DNA of 64,000 nt from a virus. Taxonomy: Duplodnaviria; Heunggongvirae; Uroviricota; Caudoviricetes. The translations under genes were made by a program, and so were the position numbers. This document shows positions 8,592-18,926 of the stretch, in pieces. Numbering within the stretch: the first letter of the stretch is position 1; each line of letters opens with the position of its first letter. The DNA is taken from IMG/VR virus record IMGVR_UViG_2823670853_000002. One strand, given 5' to 3'. The notes beneath the pieces are model-generated. The model saw nothing but the letters and a program-made list of their open reading frames with translations, searched no databases and was not told where the DNA came from.

Positions 8592-9391
8592 TTCGCCTCC
8601 TGCGGCGGTTCTGGTAGCGGCATCCAGTACAAGGCGTTCCCTAACCACGATAAAGTGCCGTCGCTCAACTCCACGTATTCCCCTTGTACCTGTCCTGCCA
8701 TATACTCGCCGTGCTTTGAATAAATTAAAATCCAATCATCTTGAGCGGGCATTCGCTCACTACAGCTTATCCAACCATCCGGAGTTACCGGATAGTTGCC
8801 ATTCACAAGGTCAGCTCGAACATATAGCGTGTCATCATGGTGCTGATTGTGGCTGCACCACGTTAATTCGCTTAACTCGCCATCTTCTGGCCATACTCCA
8901 GCTGTTTGCAGCCAGATATGGGCTGGCGCATCTTGGCAAGGTGTATTAACTGGCAACTTGTAAGTTTGGCTTACAGGTTGGCTACCCTGAAGCATGGCAG
9001 CGTGGCAGGCATCCTCAACGTTCTTCACTGCATCTGCGCAGTAGTTATAGCGATTGCATTCCACTAATTTCTGCTTGAGGTTTTCAATTGCTAACTCGAT
9101 TTCATCCGGCACTACCGGCTCTGGTTGGATAGTGACGTTGGCAAAGGCAGCACGCAAACCGGCCTTAATTTCCTCTACTTCATCAGCGCCTAGCGATGAA
9201 TCTGACAATGCGTGATGGAATGCGTAAGCCATGTCGTCGTTTACTGCAACCGGTTCTGCTTCCAGCGATGCCAGAGCAATTCGTGCCAGTTCTTCCGCTT
9301 CTTCTGCTGGCAGTACAACGTTGCTACCAGGTCCGTATGTTTCGCGCCACTGCTTGATTGTCAGCAGTCGCTCTTTGGTAATAGTGATCAT
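8588..9391 (-). CDS. Phage protein with DUF551-like C-terminal domain
   Basis: 267 aa; C-terminus WISCSERMPAQDDWILIY...WMPLPEPP resembles the DUF551 signature common in enterobacterial prophages. Confidence 0.4.
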   Translation of the reverse strand: MITITKERLLTIKQWRETYGPGSNVVLPAEEAEELARIALASLEAEPVAVNDDMAYAFHHALSDSSLGADEVEEIKAGLRAAFANVTIQPEPVVPDEIELAIENLKQKLVECNRYNYCADAVKNVEDACHAAMLQGSQPVSQTYKLPVNTPCQDAPAHIWLQTAGVWPEDGELSELTWCSHNQHHDDTLYVRADLVNGNYPVTPDGWISCSERMPAQDDWILIYSKHGEYMAGQVQGEYVELSDGTLSWLGNALYWMPLPEPPQEAK

Positions 9392-9903
9392 GCCGCGTTT
9401 CCTTCTTTCTTATTAACAATTACACCGTCATATATTTCATTAAGGTGCCCTCTCAACTCCATGCGCCTTAATGCAGATAACATGTAATCGCATTCAACCT
9501 GCTTATTTCCAGTAAATGGCTTATCGTCAGGATTACCCCAACAGCAATTACCCTTGGGCCACCCATGTACTTTCCGTACTCTTCCGTTAACAACGTGAAG
9601 TAATCCCCAGCCAGGTGGTAAATCCTCAACTGAAATAATTCCCGGCTCACTAATAAAGAATCGCCAGTCGCCCATTCCAAGAGATGGATTTTTACGAAAA
9701 CGCTTTTTCCTATCTGCCAACAAGTCAGCACGAGAACACTTCGCCTCTATCAGGCATGATGCTGAATTTCTGAATCCCATAGCATCTGGCTGTTCTCCGG
9801 TACTGGTTACAGCTATAAAGCGGTCATGAAAACAAACCTTGAACCCGTTGCGCTTAAGGAACTTATACGCAATCTGACAGAGTTCGCGGTGTGTTAACGC
9901 CAT
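9388..9903 (-). CDS. Predicted PD-(D/E)xK-fold nuclease-like protein
   Basis: 171 aa from MALTHRELCQ; candidate catalytic motif ...GEQPDAMGF...CLIEAKCS (D...E-x-K). Confidence 0.4.
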   Translation of the reverse strand: MALTHRELCQIAYKFLKRNGFKVCFHDRFIAVTSTGEQPDAMGFRNSASCLIEAKCSRADLLADRKKRFRKNPSLGMGDWRFFISEPGIISVEDLPPGWGLLHVVNGRVRKVHGWPKGNCCWGNPDDKPFTGNKQVECDYMLSALRRMELRGHLNEIYDGVIVNKKEGNAA

Positions 9904-9904
9904 A

Positions 9905-10093
9905 TCACTCTCCTTTAGTGCGCAAGTGGTTTTTCCAGCGGTTTTGCGCCGCGCTGGGCTTTTTGCAAAAACCACAATCCATCATCCCGTAATATTTCAT
10001 CAACCCCATCCGTCGGTTGCTGAGTCTCACCCACTGCCAGACGCCAGGAGCGTTTCTACGAACTAACAGAATCTTTGCTTTACGGTTTTTCAT
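9905..10093 (-). CDS. Small basic protein, paralog 3 of a tandem trio
   Basis: 62 aa starting MKNRKAK; ATG overlaps stop of the upstream paralog (ATGA). Confidence 0.3.
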   Translation of the reverse strand: MKNRKAKILLVRRNAPGVWQWVRLSNRRMGLMKYYGMMDCGFCKKPSAAQNRWKNHLRTKGE

Positions 10094-10266
10094 CTTACAG
10101 CGTACCCTTTCTTCCGCCTGTTCTGTGACGCAGTAGGCTTACGCTTTGCGGCAAAAGCCACCTGACCAAATGGATGGAGTACCGCTATCTTATGGTTGCT
10201 AATAACCAGCTCCACCACACGCACAGGTCGCTGTAAAAAAAGTCGTTTTGCCTTACGGTTTTTCAT
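10090..10266 (-). CDS. Small basic protein, paralog 2 of a tandem trio
   Basis: 58 aa starting MKNRKAK; shares a ~20-bp nucleotide repeat at its start with paralog 3; ATGA overlap with upstream ORF. Confidence 0.3.
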   Translation of the reverse strand: MKNRKAKRLFLQRPVRVVELVISNHKIAVLHPFGQVAFAAKRKPTASQNRRKKGYAVR

Positions 10267-10439
10267 CGCTTTGCTCTCCTGCGTCTCTTTGCTGCTCGTC
10301 GTGCCGCTGCAATACCGGTATGGCGGCGCTTTGGTGCCGGGATGATGTTGTCAGCCATCAGGACATACGGCTTTGCAATTAGCGCAGAAGCCCAAAAACG
10401 AGTCGGGTACGGTAACAAGCCGATACATGCCACACGCAT
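10263..10439 (-). CDS. Small basic protein with arginine-rich C-terminus
   Basis: 57 aa ending AARRAAKRRRRAKR; ATG overlaps stop of the Ea22-like gene (TAATG). Confidence 0.3.
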   Translation of the reverse strand: MRVACIGLLPYPTRFWASALIAKPYVLMADNIIPAPKRRHTGIAAARRAAKRRRRAKR

Positions 10440-11191
10440 TACTCACCTCCTTTGATGCGAATGCCTGCGGCGCGGATTGCAGCGATGACTTCAGAAACTT
10501 TGTATGCCATTACCGTTTGGTAATCATCGTGAAAATCTGTTCGATGAAGCATGCTGCTACGTTCCGGGAGCGATATTTCCCGAGCATCCAGTTCCTTAAC
10601 GCGTTCCTCCAGTTCGTAGACCCTGCATTGTTCTCTATCATCAATCAGATATACCCCAAGACATTCGCTTTCTACCCAACCGCCAAAATCATGATCGTAA
10701 CGCTCACATGAAAACTCACCGTCACCGTCCTTTGTTGGAATGGTGTAACTATCTAATGGGCCACCATATGTCGGCACATTTCCCAATGTTGGATGCTCAA
10801 TCCACATGAAAAATGCACGTCCGGTTATTGGGCAAATATCTGGCCGCCATTGGTTACGAACAGCCTTGGTTTCGGATAATTCTTCAGCGTGTTGTTTTAC
10901 TTCCTCAAGCTCAACTCTCAGCTTCCCTACCGTTAGCGCAATATCCTCGTTCTCCTGATCGCGGCGTTTTATGTATTGCTGGTTTCTTTCCCGTTCATCC
11001 AGCAGCGCCAGCACGGTTTCTGGTCCGGTCAGAAATTTGAAGGCGTTGAGCGCATCAATATCCACGCCGTAATCTTTAAGTTCCTGTTCGCTTATCAGAT
11101 CATCATCAACTGGCAACATTAACAGGCGTTCCATTGCCGGAATTGCACGCTCTGCCGCCTCACGCAGTGCCTGATAGTCAATCTTGCTCAC
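10439..11191 (-). CDS. Ead/Ea22-like family protein
   Basis: 250 aa starting MSKIDYQALREAAERA..., the characteristic N-terminus of Ea22-like prophage proteins. Confidence 0.6.
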   Translation of the reverse strand: MSKIDYQALREAAERAIPAMERLLMLPVDDDLISEQELKDYGVDIDALNAFKFLTGPETVLALLDERERNQQYIKRRDQENEDIALTVGKLRVELEEVKQHAEELSETKAVRNQWRPDICPITGRAFFMWIEHPTLGNVPTYGGPLDSYTIPTKDGDGEFSCERYDHDFGGWVESECLGVYLIDDREQCRVYELEERVKELDAREISLPERSSMLHRTDFHDDYQTVMAYKVSEVIAAIRAAGIRIKGGE

Positions 11192-11919
11192 TGGTTGCCT
11201 CCTTTTCGAAGCTCTGCGGCAAAGTCAGTGGCATGTTCACCGAGTAGTTTCCAGTTATCGCGTATATCAGATGCAAATGACTGTTCGGATTTTGAGTTAC
11301 ATTTCTGTGCAAACATCTCCAATCCCTGCGCCCGCACTTCAGCCAGGCATTTGCGAAACTCGGAAACGTACTGTTCGACGCTCATTCCCCAGCTAAGTGG
11401 ACATTCATTGAATGTTTCGCCTTCGTGCTCTTCATCAGGTAGCTCTTTGGTAAAGAACTCACGCTCAATGGCGTGGAGTGTGTCAGCAAAACGACGTAAG
11501 TTACTCAAACCTACCGTAATGGAGAATTCAGGAGCATCACATCCGACGCCCATCTGCTGATAAACGGCGGTTTTGAAGGCCTTAAGCCCCGCATTCTCCG
11601 CCACCAGCGCCGCGAGATTAGTCTCAAGCTCTGCAATTCGACACATAGCATCAATATTTGTGTCCTCCAGGCGCTTAATTTCACCAAGCAGCTCCAGTGC
11701 AACCTTTGGGTTGAACGCGGCAACATAACGAGCGTTATTCTCTGCGTTTTCCTGTCCATCAAAGCCGGGCCATTTGATAACGTCTCCACATCGTTTATCA
11801 CCGGGTGTATGCACCGCATATGTACCAGTACCCGGCGAAATAAATGCGACCCATTCGTCTGGTGTTGCCTTTTCTGCCGCCTCACGCAGTACCTGATAGT
11901 CAATTGTCATTCTCGCCAT
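11188..11919 (-). CDS. Ead/Ea22-like family protein (second tandem copy)
   Basis: 243 aa, MARMTIDYQVLREAAEKATPDEW...; N-terminal module shared with the adjacent paralog, C-terminus divergent. Confidence 0.6.
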   Translation of the reverse strand: MARMTIDYQVLREAAEKATPDEWVAFISPGTGTYAVHTPGDKRCGDVIKWPGFDGQENAENNARYVAAFNPKVALELLGEIKRLEDTNIDAMCRIAELETNLAALVAENAGLKAFKTAVYQQMGVGCDAPEFSITVGLSNLRRFADTLHAIEREFFTKELPDEEHEGETFNECPLSWGMSVEQYVSEFRKCLAEVRAQGLEMFAQKCNSKSEQSFASDIRDNWKLLGEHATDFAAELRKGGNQ

Positions 11920-12983: not shown

Positions 12984-13858
12984 GCCACTACCTCTTCGAA
13001 TTTCAACTCCAATTGGTCACCCCAGATTTCACATGATTCGGAACACGAACCAGTATCAAACCGCTTGGCCTGCACCATCGCCTGATACAAATTTCTGTAG
13101 TCGCTGTCGGCATACATTCTGGCAATCCCGTCAAGCGTCAGGTGACCACGGTACATAACGTCTTTACCTGTTCTGCGATGACCATCCCTGACGTGTTTGC
13201 CTGTAACCAGTTCGTTAAAAACCCGCATCAGACCTGGTTCGTCTTTACATGCAAGCCCCAGCTTTTGCGTTGACTTTTTGATGCAAAAAACACAGTTCCC
13301 GAGGTGCTCCGGGATTTGCAAATCAAAAGGTTGTTTTCGCCACCACCGGATAACATCCGACTTATCAAAATCTGACAGCTCGGCAAGATACCGGACGCCC
13401 GGTTTCGGTTTCAGCCTACGGGGTTCGTCCGCACGAATACCGAGCCATGTGATGTAATTCCCTCGCCCAAAATGGTCATCGCAATATTTCGTGAAAGGGG
13501 TGAGTTTTAGCCTGTCAGTACAGAACGCGCCGCCGATGTATGGCGTACCGTACTTTTTAACCATGTCCATAAACGGTTTAAGCACCGGCGTTCGCGTCTG
13601 AATATCCTTTGGTCCCCATTCCGTATAACCATTTGGCTGCCCAAGTTCTGGATTTATATCGACCTGCAACACCGTTAGCGGTACGTTCCAGAACTTCACA
13701 ACCTCACGAATAAAGCGATACGTCAGAGGATGTTCACAGCCGGTATCCATAAAAATGAAATGGACGCTAGCGCCAGCTTTTCGCTGTGCTTCCATCAGAT
13801 GAACGAGATAAGCCGATGTTCGTCCACCTGAAAAGCTGACGACTTGATGCATACTCAC
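12980..13858 (-). CDS. Phosphoadenosine phosphosulfate (PAPS) reductase-like protein
   Basis: 292 aa with the PP-loop motif SFSGGRTS near the N-terminus, as in PAPS reductase/DndC-like ATP pyrophosphatases. Confidence 0.7.
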   Translation of the reverse strand: MSMHQVVSFSGGRTSAYLVHLMEAQRKAGASVHFIFMDTGCEHPLTYRFIREVVKFWNVPLTVLQVDINPELGQPNGYTEWGPKDIQTRTPVLKPFMDMVKKYGTPYIGGAFCTDRLKLTPFTKYCDDHFGRGNYITWLGIRADEPRRLKPKPGVRYLAELSDFDKSDVIRWWRKQPFDLQIPEHLGNCVFCIKKSTQKLGLACKDEPGLMRVFNELVTGKHVRDGHRRTGKDVMYRGHLTLDGIARMYADSDYRNLYQAMVQAKRFDTGSCSESCEIWGDQLELKFEEVVA

Positions 13859-13861
13859 GGT

Positions 13862-14590
13862 TTATTCCTGAATGCGCTTAAACTCAATTACCCATACCCA
13901 GGGATTAGCGTTCCAGCTTTCTTCACCATAGATGGATTCCCACAGACGCTGGAACGCAACCTTGGCCATTGCGAAATCCCCCTTGGGAGTAAGGAATGTT
14001 TCCGGGTAATCAGGAAGCAAACTTCCAGCAGGCGGAACGCCCTCAGCCCCTGCATCGCATTCGCTGATATCGTTCAACCGCTCAACGCGCACGTTGGTAA
14101 TTTCCAACAGAATGCGTGATGCCCATCGCGGCATGTGAATTGATGGACGCCACCCACCATCAAACTTTTCATTCACAGTGTGAGGTTTCCAGTCGGCATC
14201 ATCGGGTATCGACCATAAGCCGTAATCACCAGGCTTTTGCTCACAACTGGCCCGATAAATCCTTGCTGCGTTCTTCTCATCACCACGACAAAGGTTGTCG
14301 TTCCAGTCCACACTACAACCATCCTCATTGCCTAATATCGCCCATGTTTCACGAACCCAAATTCGATCGCCGACGATACCAAAGGGGCAATTGAAGACAC
14401 TGCTTACACCATCAGCCCCGTACCACTGAAAACCTGCACCAATTTTTCTAACCATCACTGGTGCTTCTGGACCAACTTCCGCAGGCTGATTTTTCATTAT
14501 CCGCCGCGTCTGCGTTTTCCTTCCTTCGATGATGGCCCGGACCATCTCATCGTTGAAAATCATGCCGCGCTCTTTCACTTCGCCTTTCAT
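13862..14590 (-). CDS. Conserved phage protein of unknown function
   Basis: 242-aa ORF; probable start at Met10 (MIFNDEMVRAIIEGRKTQTRR), an N-terminus seen in prophage proteins adjacent to PAPS-reductase-like genes. Confidence 0.4.
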   Translation of the reverse strand: MKGEVKERGMIFNDEMVRAIIEGRKTQTRRIMKNQPAEVGPEAPVMVRKIGAGFQWYGADGVSSVFNCPFGIVGDRIWVRETWAILGNEDGCSVDWNDNLCRGDEKNAARIYRASCEQKPGDYGLWSIPDDADWKPHTVNEKFDGGWRPSIHMPRWASRILLEITNVRVERLNDISECDAGAEGVPPAGSLLPDYPETFLTPKGDFAMAKVAFQRLWESIYGEESWNANPWVWVIEFKRIQE

Positions 14591-14768
14591 GCATCCCCCT
14601 TACCCATGTGCGACGATGCCGCCAAAAGTGATAGAGAACAGCCAGAAATAGATCGCGGCCATAATGATTTTGAATGCCGTGTTCATATTTTCAGCTCCTG
14701 TGATTGATTGGATACATGCCGCGCCTTGCGGCATGTTTTTATTTTCACTTTCTCTGTTTTAAAAATCA

Positions 14769-14785: not shown

Positions 14786-15291
14786 TATTGTTGATGGAGA
14801 AGCGCGTTTTCATACTCCCTGACCATTAACGTAAGTACGCCGTGACTCCTGAAAACACGCGCCACTTCAATCTTATCTTCCAGCGCGAACGCGATTTTAC
14901 TTAGACCAATTTTCTTAAGGAGATCAATCTTTGCTGGGCCGTCATTTCTGTCATCGGTGGCAGGACGCATAGATAGCAAAGGCTCAGCCCCGTTTGTTAC
15001 GTGCTTACGCAACCAGGCTCGTGTTTTATCCCTGGCTATCTCACAGCGCCCGGTTACAAACCAGAGGGTGTAAATGCCGGACAACTGGCGCACCATATCA
15101 ATAACTGGAGTGATGGGAGCATCAGTGTCACAGGCAAGATTAAACTCGTTCCAGTGCTCTGTTAATGCACCTTTGCCCGGTGGTGGAAGTAAATGCAGCC
15201 TGTCTTCCGTTGCCTCTGATATCGTCCCATCAATATCTACTATGACGATGTACGGACGTTCCTGGTGTGCGTGTTTATTGAAAATACTCAA
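14785..15291 (-). CDS. HAD-superfamily phosphatase-like protein
   Basis: 168 aa; N-terminal VIVDIDGTI motif (DxDGT) typical of HAD hydrolases / polynucleotide 3'-phosphatases. Confidence 0.5.
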   Translation of the reverse strand: MSIFNKHAHQERPYIVIVDIDGTISEATEDRLHLLPPPGKGALTEHWNEFNLACDTDAPITPVIDMVRQLSGIYTLWFVTGRCEIARDKTRAWLRKHVTNGAEPLLSMRPATDDRNDGPAKIDLLKKIGLSKIAFALEDKIEVARVFRSHGVLTLMVREYENALLHQQ

Positions 15292-16927: not shown

Positions 16928-17629
16928 TTATTCTGATTCTCGCTCAAAAAACGAGCTAATGAGGGGAAGCCAATCCTCTGACACTTCGCGAGGCCGCGGT
17001 TTGCCGTGGAAAAAGATTATTCGGCAGTCCTTTGGTAATGTCCCATTCCCCCTGGAGTAACGCGCGCTCGCATATTTTGAACCAGGTTCCACAACATCGG
17101 CCTTGTAACTTACAAACCATCCTGGATACAGATCCTGAAATGCTGGTGTATCATCACCCATAACCTTCCGCAAAAACCCCTGATCACCCCAGCATTCAGT
17201 AGTAACACAACGAGCAATCCAACCTTCCGGATCTTGCCAGAATGCACTCCAGATATGCGCTTTTACACTATTTGGTATCCACAGGGCACCGCTACCACGA
17301 TATTGTGGATGGTAAAAATCCCTAAGCATGGTGAAGCTGGTTGGTGGATTCTCAAGGATTGGGCGTATATCACCGGCAATAACTGTGTCCAAATCCAGAT
17401 AGAACAGATCATCGGTTATATCCGGTCGGAACAACTCGATTTTCGCCCACCAGCCACGGCACTTTTGCCACTGGTTGATCAATGGGATAACTTTGACGCC
17501 AGGTACATGTAAACGCTTCAGGTCTGTCAGGCAAATAATTTCATAGCCTTTTGGCAGTTGATTAACCAGCCACTGCACATCGGAAGCGTTATAGTCACCA
17601 CCAGAGCGAAAAACTAAAGCAATCTTCAT
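16928..17629 (-). CDS. Putative GT-A-fold glycosyltransferase-like protein
   Basis: 233 aa; Rossmann-like start [12 protein letters not shown] and a DXD-type motif ([11 protein letters not shown]); assignment from motif only. Confidence 0.35.
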
Positions 17630-18318
17630 GCTGCACCATCACCTTTCACTTTCATCAATGTCAGGTTTCCGCAAAATACGGCACCAGTGTCGATATACTG
17701 CTGATTCCAGAATGTCTTCGGGCTTTTCACCGGAGTGTGACCAAAGATAAAACGATCTGCGCCCGAAATTTCGCCACCAATATCATCCATCGAATCACTG
17801 ATACGCTCGCGCGCCCAGACAACGTTGAAAAGCGGCACCTCCTTACCGAATTGGTATTCATTATCCGGATAGTCGGCATGGGCTATAACGATAGTTTCTT
17901 GCCCGGTGTTCAACTCAATGATATAGGGCAGACGCTTTACCAGCTCCACCAGCGCCCAGGCTAATATTTCCTGATCAGTGTCCAGCATGAAGAACCATTG
18001 TCCGCCATTCATTAGCCAGTTATTCACGTTGCCATCTGGACTTAACGCATCAATCATCAGCCGCTCATGGTTCCCCATCACTGCCCTGAACCAGGGCATC
18101 TGCAATAGTTCCAGACATTCGACATTTTCAGTACCGCGATCGATAAGGTCGCCGACCGATATCAGTAAATCCTGCGCCGGGTCAAAATCCACACGATGGA
18201 GTTCGGACATCAGTCTGGTGTAGCAACCATGCAGATCACCAACAACCCAGACATTCCTGTATTTGGTACCGTCGATACGGTGATAAATTGTGGGTGCCAT
18301 CATGTATTCTTCAGCCAT
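17626..18318 (-). CDS. Ser/Thr protein phosphatase (lambda-phosphatase-like metallophosphoesterase)
   Basis: 230 aa with GDLHG, GDLIDRG and GNHE motifs of the PPP family; occupies the position of the P1 protein phosphatase gene (ppp). Confidence 0.85.
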
Positions 18319-18926
18319 TCTTTAAGAGTCATCTGCGGAATACCTCCCATTTTCCCGCATGAAACAACGTCAATCTGTTCACGCGCAGACTGGAATAACA
18401 AAGGCAGGTGACTTAGATTTTTTGGCGTGCCGCCGGAGTGAACGCGTGGTTCTTGTGTAGCGTCAACGCCCACCAGGGCGACATGTTTGAATCCGATATG
18501 GAAAGCCAGGTTCAGAGCGCCATATGCACTATTGCCGCTGGCAATTTCATTCTCATCTTCGCAAAGTCCGAAATGTGCGGACCAGCGCCACGCCCACCAC
18601 TCGGGAGAATTCGTATTTTTTGGCTCCATGCCACGTTCAGCCACACGACGGAAGCACAGAACGCCGTCTCTGACTTCACGTTCTTTAACATCGGGTAGTG
18701 CCATGCAATAACAAACACCACGGCGACGGCGGCCACGACCAACGCGCCGCATATTGTCTAGCGATGGATCAAGTGTGAAAAAATAAGAAGCGCGGTTCAG
18801 CCAGTCGATGGCCCCATTGACCGCTATAATCGGCACTCCGCGCGGCGCAACAAAGTTTGCGGCGCTTGGGCCACTGCCGACGATAATAACGCGATCACTG
18901 CCTCTAAATTTATTCTTGGGAAACAT
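18300..18926 (-). CDS. DUF115 (MptE/Maf-like) domain protein, paralog B
   Basis: 208 aa; N-terminal [10 protein letters not shown] nucleotide-binding-like motif resembling the DUF115 signature. Confidence 0.4.

Follow-up and report, generated by a model that had tools for sequence, protein, structure and literature searches.

Three small, very basic open reading frames between ea22 and xis/int of an Stx2 prophage are likely genes of two catalogued phage protein families

Phage proteins with arginine-rich-motif (ARM) RNA-binding peptides include lambda N, P22 N and HK022 Nun. Small proteins encoded between exo and xis are reported to shift the lysis-lysogeny decision and have been modelled as modulators of RNA polymerase or of transcription (PMC8614690), and a further report presents λ Orf73 in its title as a homolog of TraR and as reprogramming the transcription of the host (PMC9239242). 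The genes that follow ea22 in Stx phages are described as uncharacterised; they vary, and some are duplicated (PMC8614690, PMC4195576). Two families in the PHROG catalogue are also relevant. Members of phrog_1380 (62-aa profile) include PhiV10p50, p51, VT2-Sap08, RCS47 gp057, TL-2011c gp07, Sasha gp78, D6 orf101 and Av-05 gp113, and the phiV10 annotators already recorded the likeness of p50, p51 and VT2-Sap08. Members of phrog_13831 (58-aa profile) include PhiV10p49 and X015 of EDL933, the 933W allele of the first of the three ORFs described here.

The window analysed, a stretch of 64,000 nucleotides of viral DNA, contains three ORFs (ORF1, ORF2 and ORF3) that tile 9905-10439 on one strand (Table 1). 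Both the chromosome of E. coli O145:H28 RM12581 and the Stx2c phage Stx2_EH1904 match the region at 100% identity, and the window represents the accessory ('exo-xis/ea') part of the pL early-left region in the lambdoid Stx2 prophage of RM12581. In RefSeq, a long series of genes on one strand starts at the cI/cro region and leads by way of kil, an ERF recombinase gene, an anti-RecBCD gene and two Ea22-like genes to ORF1-ORF3, and beyond ORF3 through DUF551 and ASCH genes to a xis-like HTH gene adjoining int. ORF1-ORF3 are like the small exo-xis proteins in operon, in the pL early-left position from exo to xis, in size class and in dispensable accessory character, whereas no sequence or fold similarity between the two groups was detected and the Cys residues of ORF1-ORF3 are not conserved. 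The early-left operon is interrupted by two IS3-family transposase copies on the stretch that leads from cI/pL to the three ORFs; the anti-RecBCD gene is split by one of them, and the other occupies the place expected for the N-proximal genes. As both copies separate pL from the cassette, a possible polar disruption, its expression may be impaired or poor in this prophage, a point that counts against the explanation favoured below.

Table 1. Positions of the three ORFs, their junctions and neighbouring features in the window
Feature	Position	Strand	Description
ORF1	10263-10439	minus	58 aa, MRVACIG...AAKRRRRAKR; RefSeq WP_001261538.1; phrog_13831; full sequence MRVACIGLLPYPTRFWASALIAKPYVLMADNIIPAPKRRHTGIAAARRAAKRRRRAKR; variable N-terminal half, conserved C-terminal tail PKRRHTGIAAARRAAKRRRRAKR
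ORF2	10090-10266	minus	58 aa, MKNRKAKRLF...; phrog_1380; full sequence MKNRKAKRLFLQRPVRVVELVISNHKIAVLHPFGQVAFAAKRKPTASQNRRKKGYAVR; C-terminus ...SQNRRKKGYAVR
ORF3	9905-10093	minus	62 aa, MKNRKAKILL...; RefSeq WP_000797279.1; phrog_1380; full sequence MKNRKAKILLVRRNAPGVWQWVRLSNRRMGLMKYYGMMDCGFCKKPSAAQNRWKNHLRTKGE; C-terminus KPSAAQNRWKNHLRTKGE
Ead/Ea22-like upstream neighbour	10439-11191	minus	Pfam PF13935 E=3e-29; RefSeq WP_001289898.1
Second Ead/Ea22-like paralog	11188-11919	minus	PF13935 E=8e-20; 4-nt overlap with the 10439-11191 copy
Downstream neighbour (PD-(D/E)xK-like)	9388-9903	minus	171-aa ORF, PD...EAK motif seen by eye; phrog_9263 and phrog_631
Part of downstream neighbour called in RefSeq (PGAP)	9725-9903		'frameshifted' pseudogene; 9388-9724 left empty
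Shine-Dalgarno for ORF1	10446-10452	minus	AAGGAGG, in final Ea22-like codons, 6 nt before ATG
Shine-Dalgarno for ORF2	10276-10280	minus	AGGAG, in ORF1 Arg-rich tail codons, 9 nt before ATG
Shine-Dalgarno for PD-(D/E)xK-like gene	9910-9915	minus	AAGGAG, in last ORF3 codons (KGE)
Ea22-like stop and ORF1 start	10441-10437	sense	TAATG
ORF1/ORF2 junction	10266-10263	sense	ATGA
ORF2/ORF3 junction	10093-10090	sense	ATGA
ORF3 stop and next gene's start	9907-9901	sense	TGAtATG
21-nt repeat, copy 1	10247-10267		ORF2 5' end and overlapping ORF1 stop
21-nt repeat, copy 2	10074-10094		ORF3 5' end and overlapping ORF2 stop
12-nt inverted repeat	9926-9937 / 9964-9975		92% complementary, 26-nt spacer, in ORF3 3' part
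IS3-family transposase copy	13554-14767
IS3-family transposase copy	17469-18682
Fragments of anti-RecBCD gene split by IS3 copy	~13413-13514 and 14822-15019

The preliminary description, made from the letters alone, had placed three small tandem ORFs linked by ATGA or TAATG between a gene like Ea22 and one of PD-(D/E)xK type, and reading the sequence bears this out, with all three on the same strand. As is typical of coupled operon genes, stop and start codons overlap or abut at all four junctions, and such overlaps would permit translational coupling. Tiling of at least 95% by ATG-initiated ORFs of at least 50 codons was seen in 16 strands out of 40000 that were simulated by a Markov model at equal length and composition. 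ORF3 has only a weak purine run, at least 11 nt upstream of its start, so that its Shine-Dalgarno sequence is weak and distant. The products are small and basic and ORF1 ends in an Arg-rich (Arg/Lys) tail, as had also been noted; the basicity is extreme, with computed net charges of +13.6 to +14.7 and pI values of 11.3-12.0.

As for the flanks, the Ea22-like assignment is secured by the Pfam match (Table 1). The first Ea22-like paralog ends in ...IRIKGGE with the Shine-Dalgarno sequence of the next gene in its last codons, and ORF3 ends alike (...LRTKGE). The PD-(D/E)xK-like assignment stands as far as the motif visible by eye, but the 171-aa ORF has no Pfam, NCBIfam or PDB match, its one PHROG functional match being a weak one to 'DNA repair protein' (E=0.0023). 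This ORF is intact in the window, and dozens of other loci have it with unchanged length and start (MALTHRELCQIA); the PGAP pseudogene call within it looks like an annotation artefact.

ORF1, ORF2 and ORF3 are very probably real, translated genes. Each matches a PHROG profile: ORF1 matches phrog_13831 at full length (E=1.1e-41, residues 1-58 on profile 1-58), ORF3 matches phrog_1380 at full length (E=1e-40, residues 1-62 on profile 1-62), and ORF2 matches phrog_1380 with residues 1-58 on profile 1-60 (E=6.5e-23). The exact protein sequences each occur on at least 1000 public contigs under the names 'hypothetical', 'uncharacterized' or 'prophage protein', and of 5426 complete genomes of E. coli, 1309 have a match to the DNA. 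Among close alleles, the synonymous share of polymorphisms is 0.48 for ORF1 (p=0.006), 0.62 for ORF2 (10/16, 24% being expected; p=0.001) and 0.42 for ORF3 (p=0.017), against an expected share of 0.19-0.26 across the three frames. Among distant homologs, pN is lower than pS in every segment of every ORF3-family comparison. The frames, whose conservation in relatives had been named as a point to check, are conserved in related and in unrelated phages; ORF2 is intact in the ORF3-seeded loci except for one copy (L070), which is truncated by a frameshift.

Evidence of translation, likewise proposed as a check, is published for the 933W ortholog of ORF1, the novel gene X015 of EDL933, which has ribosome footprints (Neuhaus et al. 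2016, PMC4765031, supplementary file 8). The values for X015 are a transcript RPKM of 108.8, a footprint RPKM of 34.8, a footprint coverage of 0.84 and an RCV of 0.32, with no mass-spectrometry peptides (PMC4765031). X015 is 51 aa long; compared with ORF1, it lacks 7 internal residues and has a Cys in its tail. Published small-gene datasets yielded no translation data on ORF2 or ORF3, and the ORF1-ORF3 sequences are absent from the supplements of the Sakai small-gene paper.

Annotation of these genes is inconsistent. The RefSeq record of this genome has ORF1 and ORF3, with ORF2 falling in an unannotated gap; that of RCS47 has ORF2 alone; and the original 933W record (AF125520) has neither the ORF1 nor the ORF3 homolog. 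ORF2 is annotated elsewhere, for example as RCS47 gp057 and TL-2011c gp07. In 933W, L0068 (95 aa) runs over the 3' end of the ORF3 homolog, which has no annotation of its own; L0068 appears to be a DUF4014-like gene called with too long an N-terminus. Such omissions, of ORF2 here, of ORF3 in 933W and of ORF1 and ORF3 in RCS47, would fit spurious ORFs or decayed fragments of a larger gene in what would be a non-coding spacer or a regulatory RNA, as would the fused forms phrog_9263 and phrog_12350 that PHROGs includes. That explanation is nevertheless highly improbable given the purifying selection, the ribosome footprints on the ORF1 ortholog and the frames that remain open in divergent phages. 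An Rfam scan of the region found no family match, nor was any promoter or terminator consensus found inside the three-ORF cassette, and these results also weigh against it. A regulatory RNA hairpin formed by the 12-nt inverted repeat, the only hairpin found, was considered and rejected, since shuffled sequences fold as stably (z=+0.70) and the 5' arm falls in a variable part of the family. Accepted as genes, the three make the cassette a clean case of annotation pipelines overlooking small genes of phages, with RefSeq omitting ORF2 and the neighbours inconsistently annotated.

ORF2 and ORF3 belong to a narrow family, here called the MKNRKAK family, for which a profile search run exhaustively over 1.84 billion representatives found 48 clusters. 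Homologs with a named source come from Escherichia and Salmonella, and the phages with homologs infect E. coli, Salmonella and Yersinia. The search for the family in other phages, which the preliminary description had suggested for prophages, found it in Stx phages (Sepvirinae), the P1-like RCS47 and D6 (Punavirus), phiV10 (Uetakevirus), Sasha (Sashavirus), Av-05 (Vequintavirinae), PhiR12_2 and a Yersinia phage; the ORF3 homologs of Sasha, D6, phiV10, PhiR12_2, Av-05 and the Yersinia phage stand alone. Alignments show three motifs around a variable core: N-terminal [MK]NRKA[KR]xL, central [RK][ILV]SN[RH][RK] and C-terminal SAAQNRWKNH. ORF3 carries all three, and ORF2 has MKNRKAKRL, ISNHK and TASQNRRK, the last with Arg in place of Trp (C-terminal test form SA[AS]QNR[WR]K). 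Size, motifs and the character of a short gene overlapping its neighbours are common to ORF2, ORF3 and the other phrog_1380 members. The window differs in having a two-copy array behind ORF1, other phages having one copy or a hybrid, and nothing essential differs. In 91 ORF3-seeded loci, one MKNRKAK copy was found in 47, two in 41 and three in one; a gene with the exact MKNRKAK start is lacking in 3 of the ORF3-seeded loci.

The three ORFs had been taken for one recently duplicated family. ORF2 and ORF3 are indeed paralogs, both in phrog_1380, but ORF1 lies outside that family, and the duplication does not look recent. ORF2 and ORF3 share 33% amino acid and 58% nucleotide identity, their synonymous sites are saturated (pS 0.79), and the low synonymous divergence over the whole length that marks a recent tandem duplication is not found. 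By this sequence divergence the two are, with little doubt, old duplicates. Their common MKNRKAK start and the repeat of about 20 bp were correctly noted, the latter being a direct repeat of 21 nt, 20/21 identical (95%), over both MKNRKAK starts. As a fresh duplication scar, however, the repeat does not hold up: it encodes the family-wide [MK]NRKA[KR] start, and the observed differences in it are synonymous. Because near-identity of these saturated paralogs is limited to the first 20 nt (19/20), the repeat is better read as a conserved start than as the trace of a recent duplication. In MKNRKAK-starting copies, the observed differences in the first seven codons are all synonymous; these copies were chosen by the motif, and a profile search also shows substitutions such as MNNRKAK.

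The ends of these genes recur as junctions beside different neighbours. The C-terminus ...SQNRRKKGYAVR always stands ahead of another MKNRKAK gene and ...QNRWKNHLRTKGE ahead of unrelated genes. Correspondingly, the junction ...GCAGGAGAGCAAA(A/G)CGATGAAAAACCG is found ahead of MKNRKAK genes behind differing upstream genes, and the ORF3-end junction CGCACTAAAGGAGAGTGATATGGC recurs ahead of at least 5 different downstream genes. In comparisons of Sasha, D6, phiV10 and EH0505, pS is 0.14 in the C-terminal segment and 0.64-0.69 in the middle of the gene. As pS is low at the 3' end and the junctions recur, the gene ends are under constraint at the RNA or DNA level, or recently exchanged, in addition to being constrained as protein.

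Recombinant forms are also seen. PhiV10p50 is a hybrid with an ORF3-like N-terminus and core and the C-terminus of ORF2 type, which suggests unequal crossing-over between tandem copies; PhiV10p51 has in RefSeq an N-terminal extension that overlaps p50. Among five further database proteins (P0175, P0165, P0035, P0180 and P0181) are fusions of an MKNRKAK N-terminus to DUF4014, to a nuclease-like C-terminus or to a DUF551-like protein, and in P0181 a ...AAQNRWKNYLRTKGE end is joined to an unrelated N-terminus. These five look like products of deletion or recombination at the conserved junctions. Databases commonly contain fusions by deletion and alleles with frameshifts.

Such patterns raise the alternative that the ORFs are mainly junction sequence, with ends kept as DNA or RNA to serve as ribosome-binding sites of the following gene and as short homologies for module exchange, and that the peptides have little or no function. 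The coincidence of conserved ends with junctions that recur before and behind different genes speaks for it, as do 3' DNA more conserved than neutral, the frequency of hybrid and deletion-fusion forms such as p50 and the five just named, and a double frameshift in the middle region that is tolerated in P0054 and P0060. We consider it unlikely, because amino acids are kept where the DNA has diverged. In PhiR12_2, SAAQNRWKNH shows 7 synonymous and 0 nonsynonymous changes, and residues 36-58 of the ORF1 tail show 10 synonymous changes and 1 nonsynonymous change against a divergent copy (L096), a dN/dS of about 0.02, with 0.2-0.75 in the N-terminal half of ORF1. The central SN[RH][RK] motif is far from any junction, dN/dS is below 1 (0.30-0.44) even in the variable middle, and the synonymous differences in the first seven codons, in that motif-selected set, point the same way.

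ORF1 forms a family of its own (phrog_13831), whose source-named members are from Escherichia. In viral loci seeded with ORF1, it is followed by ATGA and an MKNRKAK gene in 77 of the 78 that could be parsed; in the remaining one the MKNRKAK gene comes directly after ORF1, without the ATGA overlap. Six more loci, reached through divergent ORF1 proteins, agree: five do so by gene sizes (62-64 aa) or, for L096, by reading, and for L097 the pairing is assigned by analogy with L096. ORF1 is thus always followed by a phrog_1380 gene in the sampled loci, while members of phrog_1380 also travel alone. A profile scan of genome contigs with the ORF1 alignment found nothing. It was also considered whether the Arg tail is a mere by-product of the ribosome-binding site of the next gene, and the synonymous changes against L096 rule this out.

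Some ORF1 alleles (P0125, P0126 and P0130) are +1-frame variants in which the Arg-rich tail is replaced by an acidic one (...EQQRDAGEQSDEKP). The variant frame stops 14 nt into the MKNRKAK gene, and P0130 is on 95 contigs. This same end, as ...GDAGEQ(S/N)DEKP, also terminates some Ea22-like genes directly before an MKNRKAK gene (L007, L012). The acidic-tail alleles of ORF1 are fairly common, which weighs against the explanation favoured below.

The tail of ORF1 is comparable with the ARM peptides: AAARRAAKRRRRAKR is an Arg/Lys-rich predicted helix (residues 40-57; pLDDT ~74, a low-to-moderate confidence). It differs from them in being C-terminal and not N-terminal, and RNA binding by it is putative. 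Membership of ORF1 in the N/Nun family found no support in Pfam or NCBIfam, and no cognate RNA hairpin was identified (no Rfam match; z=+0.70 for the hairpin above). The predicted structure of ORF1 has two helices (pLDDT 65.4) and found no neighbour among PDB structures.

For all three proteins, no usable match came from Pfam, NCBIfam, PADLOC, Rfam or the sequence profiles of the PDB, PADLOC defence-system models giving 0 families at E up to 1, and no fold match was found. A literature search on the ORF accessions, the peptide and the PHROG ids also found nothing. Several identities were considered and rejected. ORF3 has a CxxC and a zf-C2H2_jaz Pfam match below the gathering cutoff (E=0.096); other members of the family do not conserve its C40 and C43, and neither is present in ORF2, so a zinc finger was discarded. 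Likeness to the ribosome-associated protein Sra (S22) had an hhalign probability of 1.5%. A dsRBD or HicA-like fold, suggested by an alpha-beta3-alpha topology, gained no support from superposition on solved members. A membrane peptide, type I toxin or holin would need a hydrophobic segment, and there is none: the maximum 19-residue Kyte-Doolittle means are 1.24 (ORF1), 0.96 (ORF2) and 0.21 (ORF3), the usual transmembrane threshold being 1.6.

On balance, it is somewhat probable that the cassette consists of three genuine small genes in the pL accessory block between ea22 and xis/int, encoding dispensable early polyanion-binding factors. After induction, ribosomes on the long pL transcript would pass from Ea22 to ORF1 by way of the strong Shine-Dalgarno sequence and the TAATG, and from ORF1 to ORF2 by way of the Shine-Dalgarno sequence in the ORF1 tail and the ATGA. 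As the Shine-Dalgarno sequence of ORF3 is weak and distant, passage from ORF2 to ORF3 at the ATGA is probably by termination-reinitiation, and ribosomes would finally reach the nuclease-like gene through the Shine-Dalgarno sequence in the last codons of ORF3. With a net charge of +14 in about 60 residues, the products would most likely bind a polyanion, be it RNA, DNA or the ribosome, and serve early on as accessory factors that the phage can dispense with. That they bind nucleic acid or the ribosome specifically is proposed only tentatively, from the extreme basicity, from conserved positions that are polar or basic (Arg, Lys, Asn, Gln, Ser and Trp for the most part) and from the spread over unrelated phages. 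Since the family also occurs in P1-like, epsilon15-like, Sasha-like and virulent rV5-like phages, the target is probably host-encoded or generic.

The same spread over unrelated phage types, pointing to a host target, would suit proteins that act by touching proteins of the host, for instance RNA polymerase, components of the division apparatus or defence proteins, with the charge being incidental. The small exo-xis proteins have been proposed to work in this way, the location of ORF1-ORF3 fits the exo-xis accessory block, and both the lysis-lysogeny studies and the λ Orf73 report cited above lend support. Such a role, the main rival to polyanion binding, is possible but rather unlikely, as a charge of about +14 in about 60 residues and conserved Arg, Lys, Asn and Gln are more typical of polyanion binders, and no similarity to a known RNA polymerase-binding or anti-defence family was found.

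A more specific and distinctly speculative version of polyanion binding is that ORF1 and the MKNRKAK protein or proteins form an obligate two-family small RNA-binding module. The ARM-like helix would come from the C-terminus of ORF1 and a compact basic domain from the MKNRKAK protein, and the module would act early on host RNA or the ribosome, for example by biasing translation or RNA stability. If true, this would be a new class of phage small RNA-binding regulators in temperate and virulent enterobacterial phages.

As it stands, ORF1-ORF3 are already catalogued as hypothetical phage proteins, the likeness of the paralogs has already been noted, and no new kind of system is indicated. The practical value is modest and the finding is ordinary save for the function of the proteins. 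Because the exo-xis/ea region influences the lysis-lysogeny decision, and hence toxin release, a host-directed activity of these proteins could bear on the induction of Stx phages.
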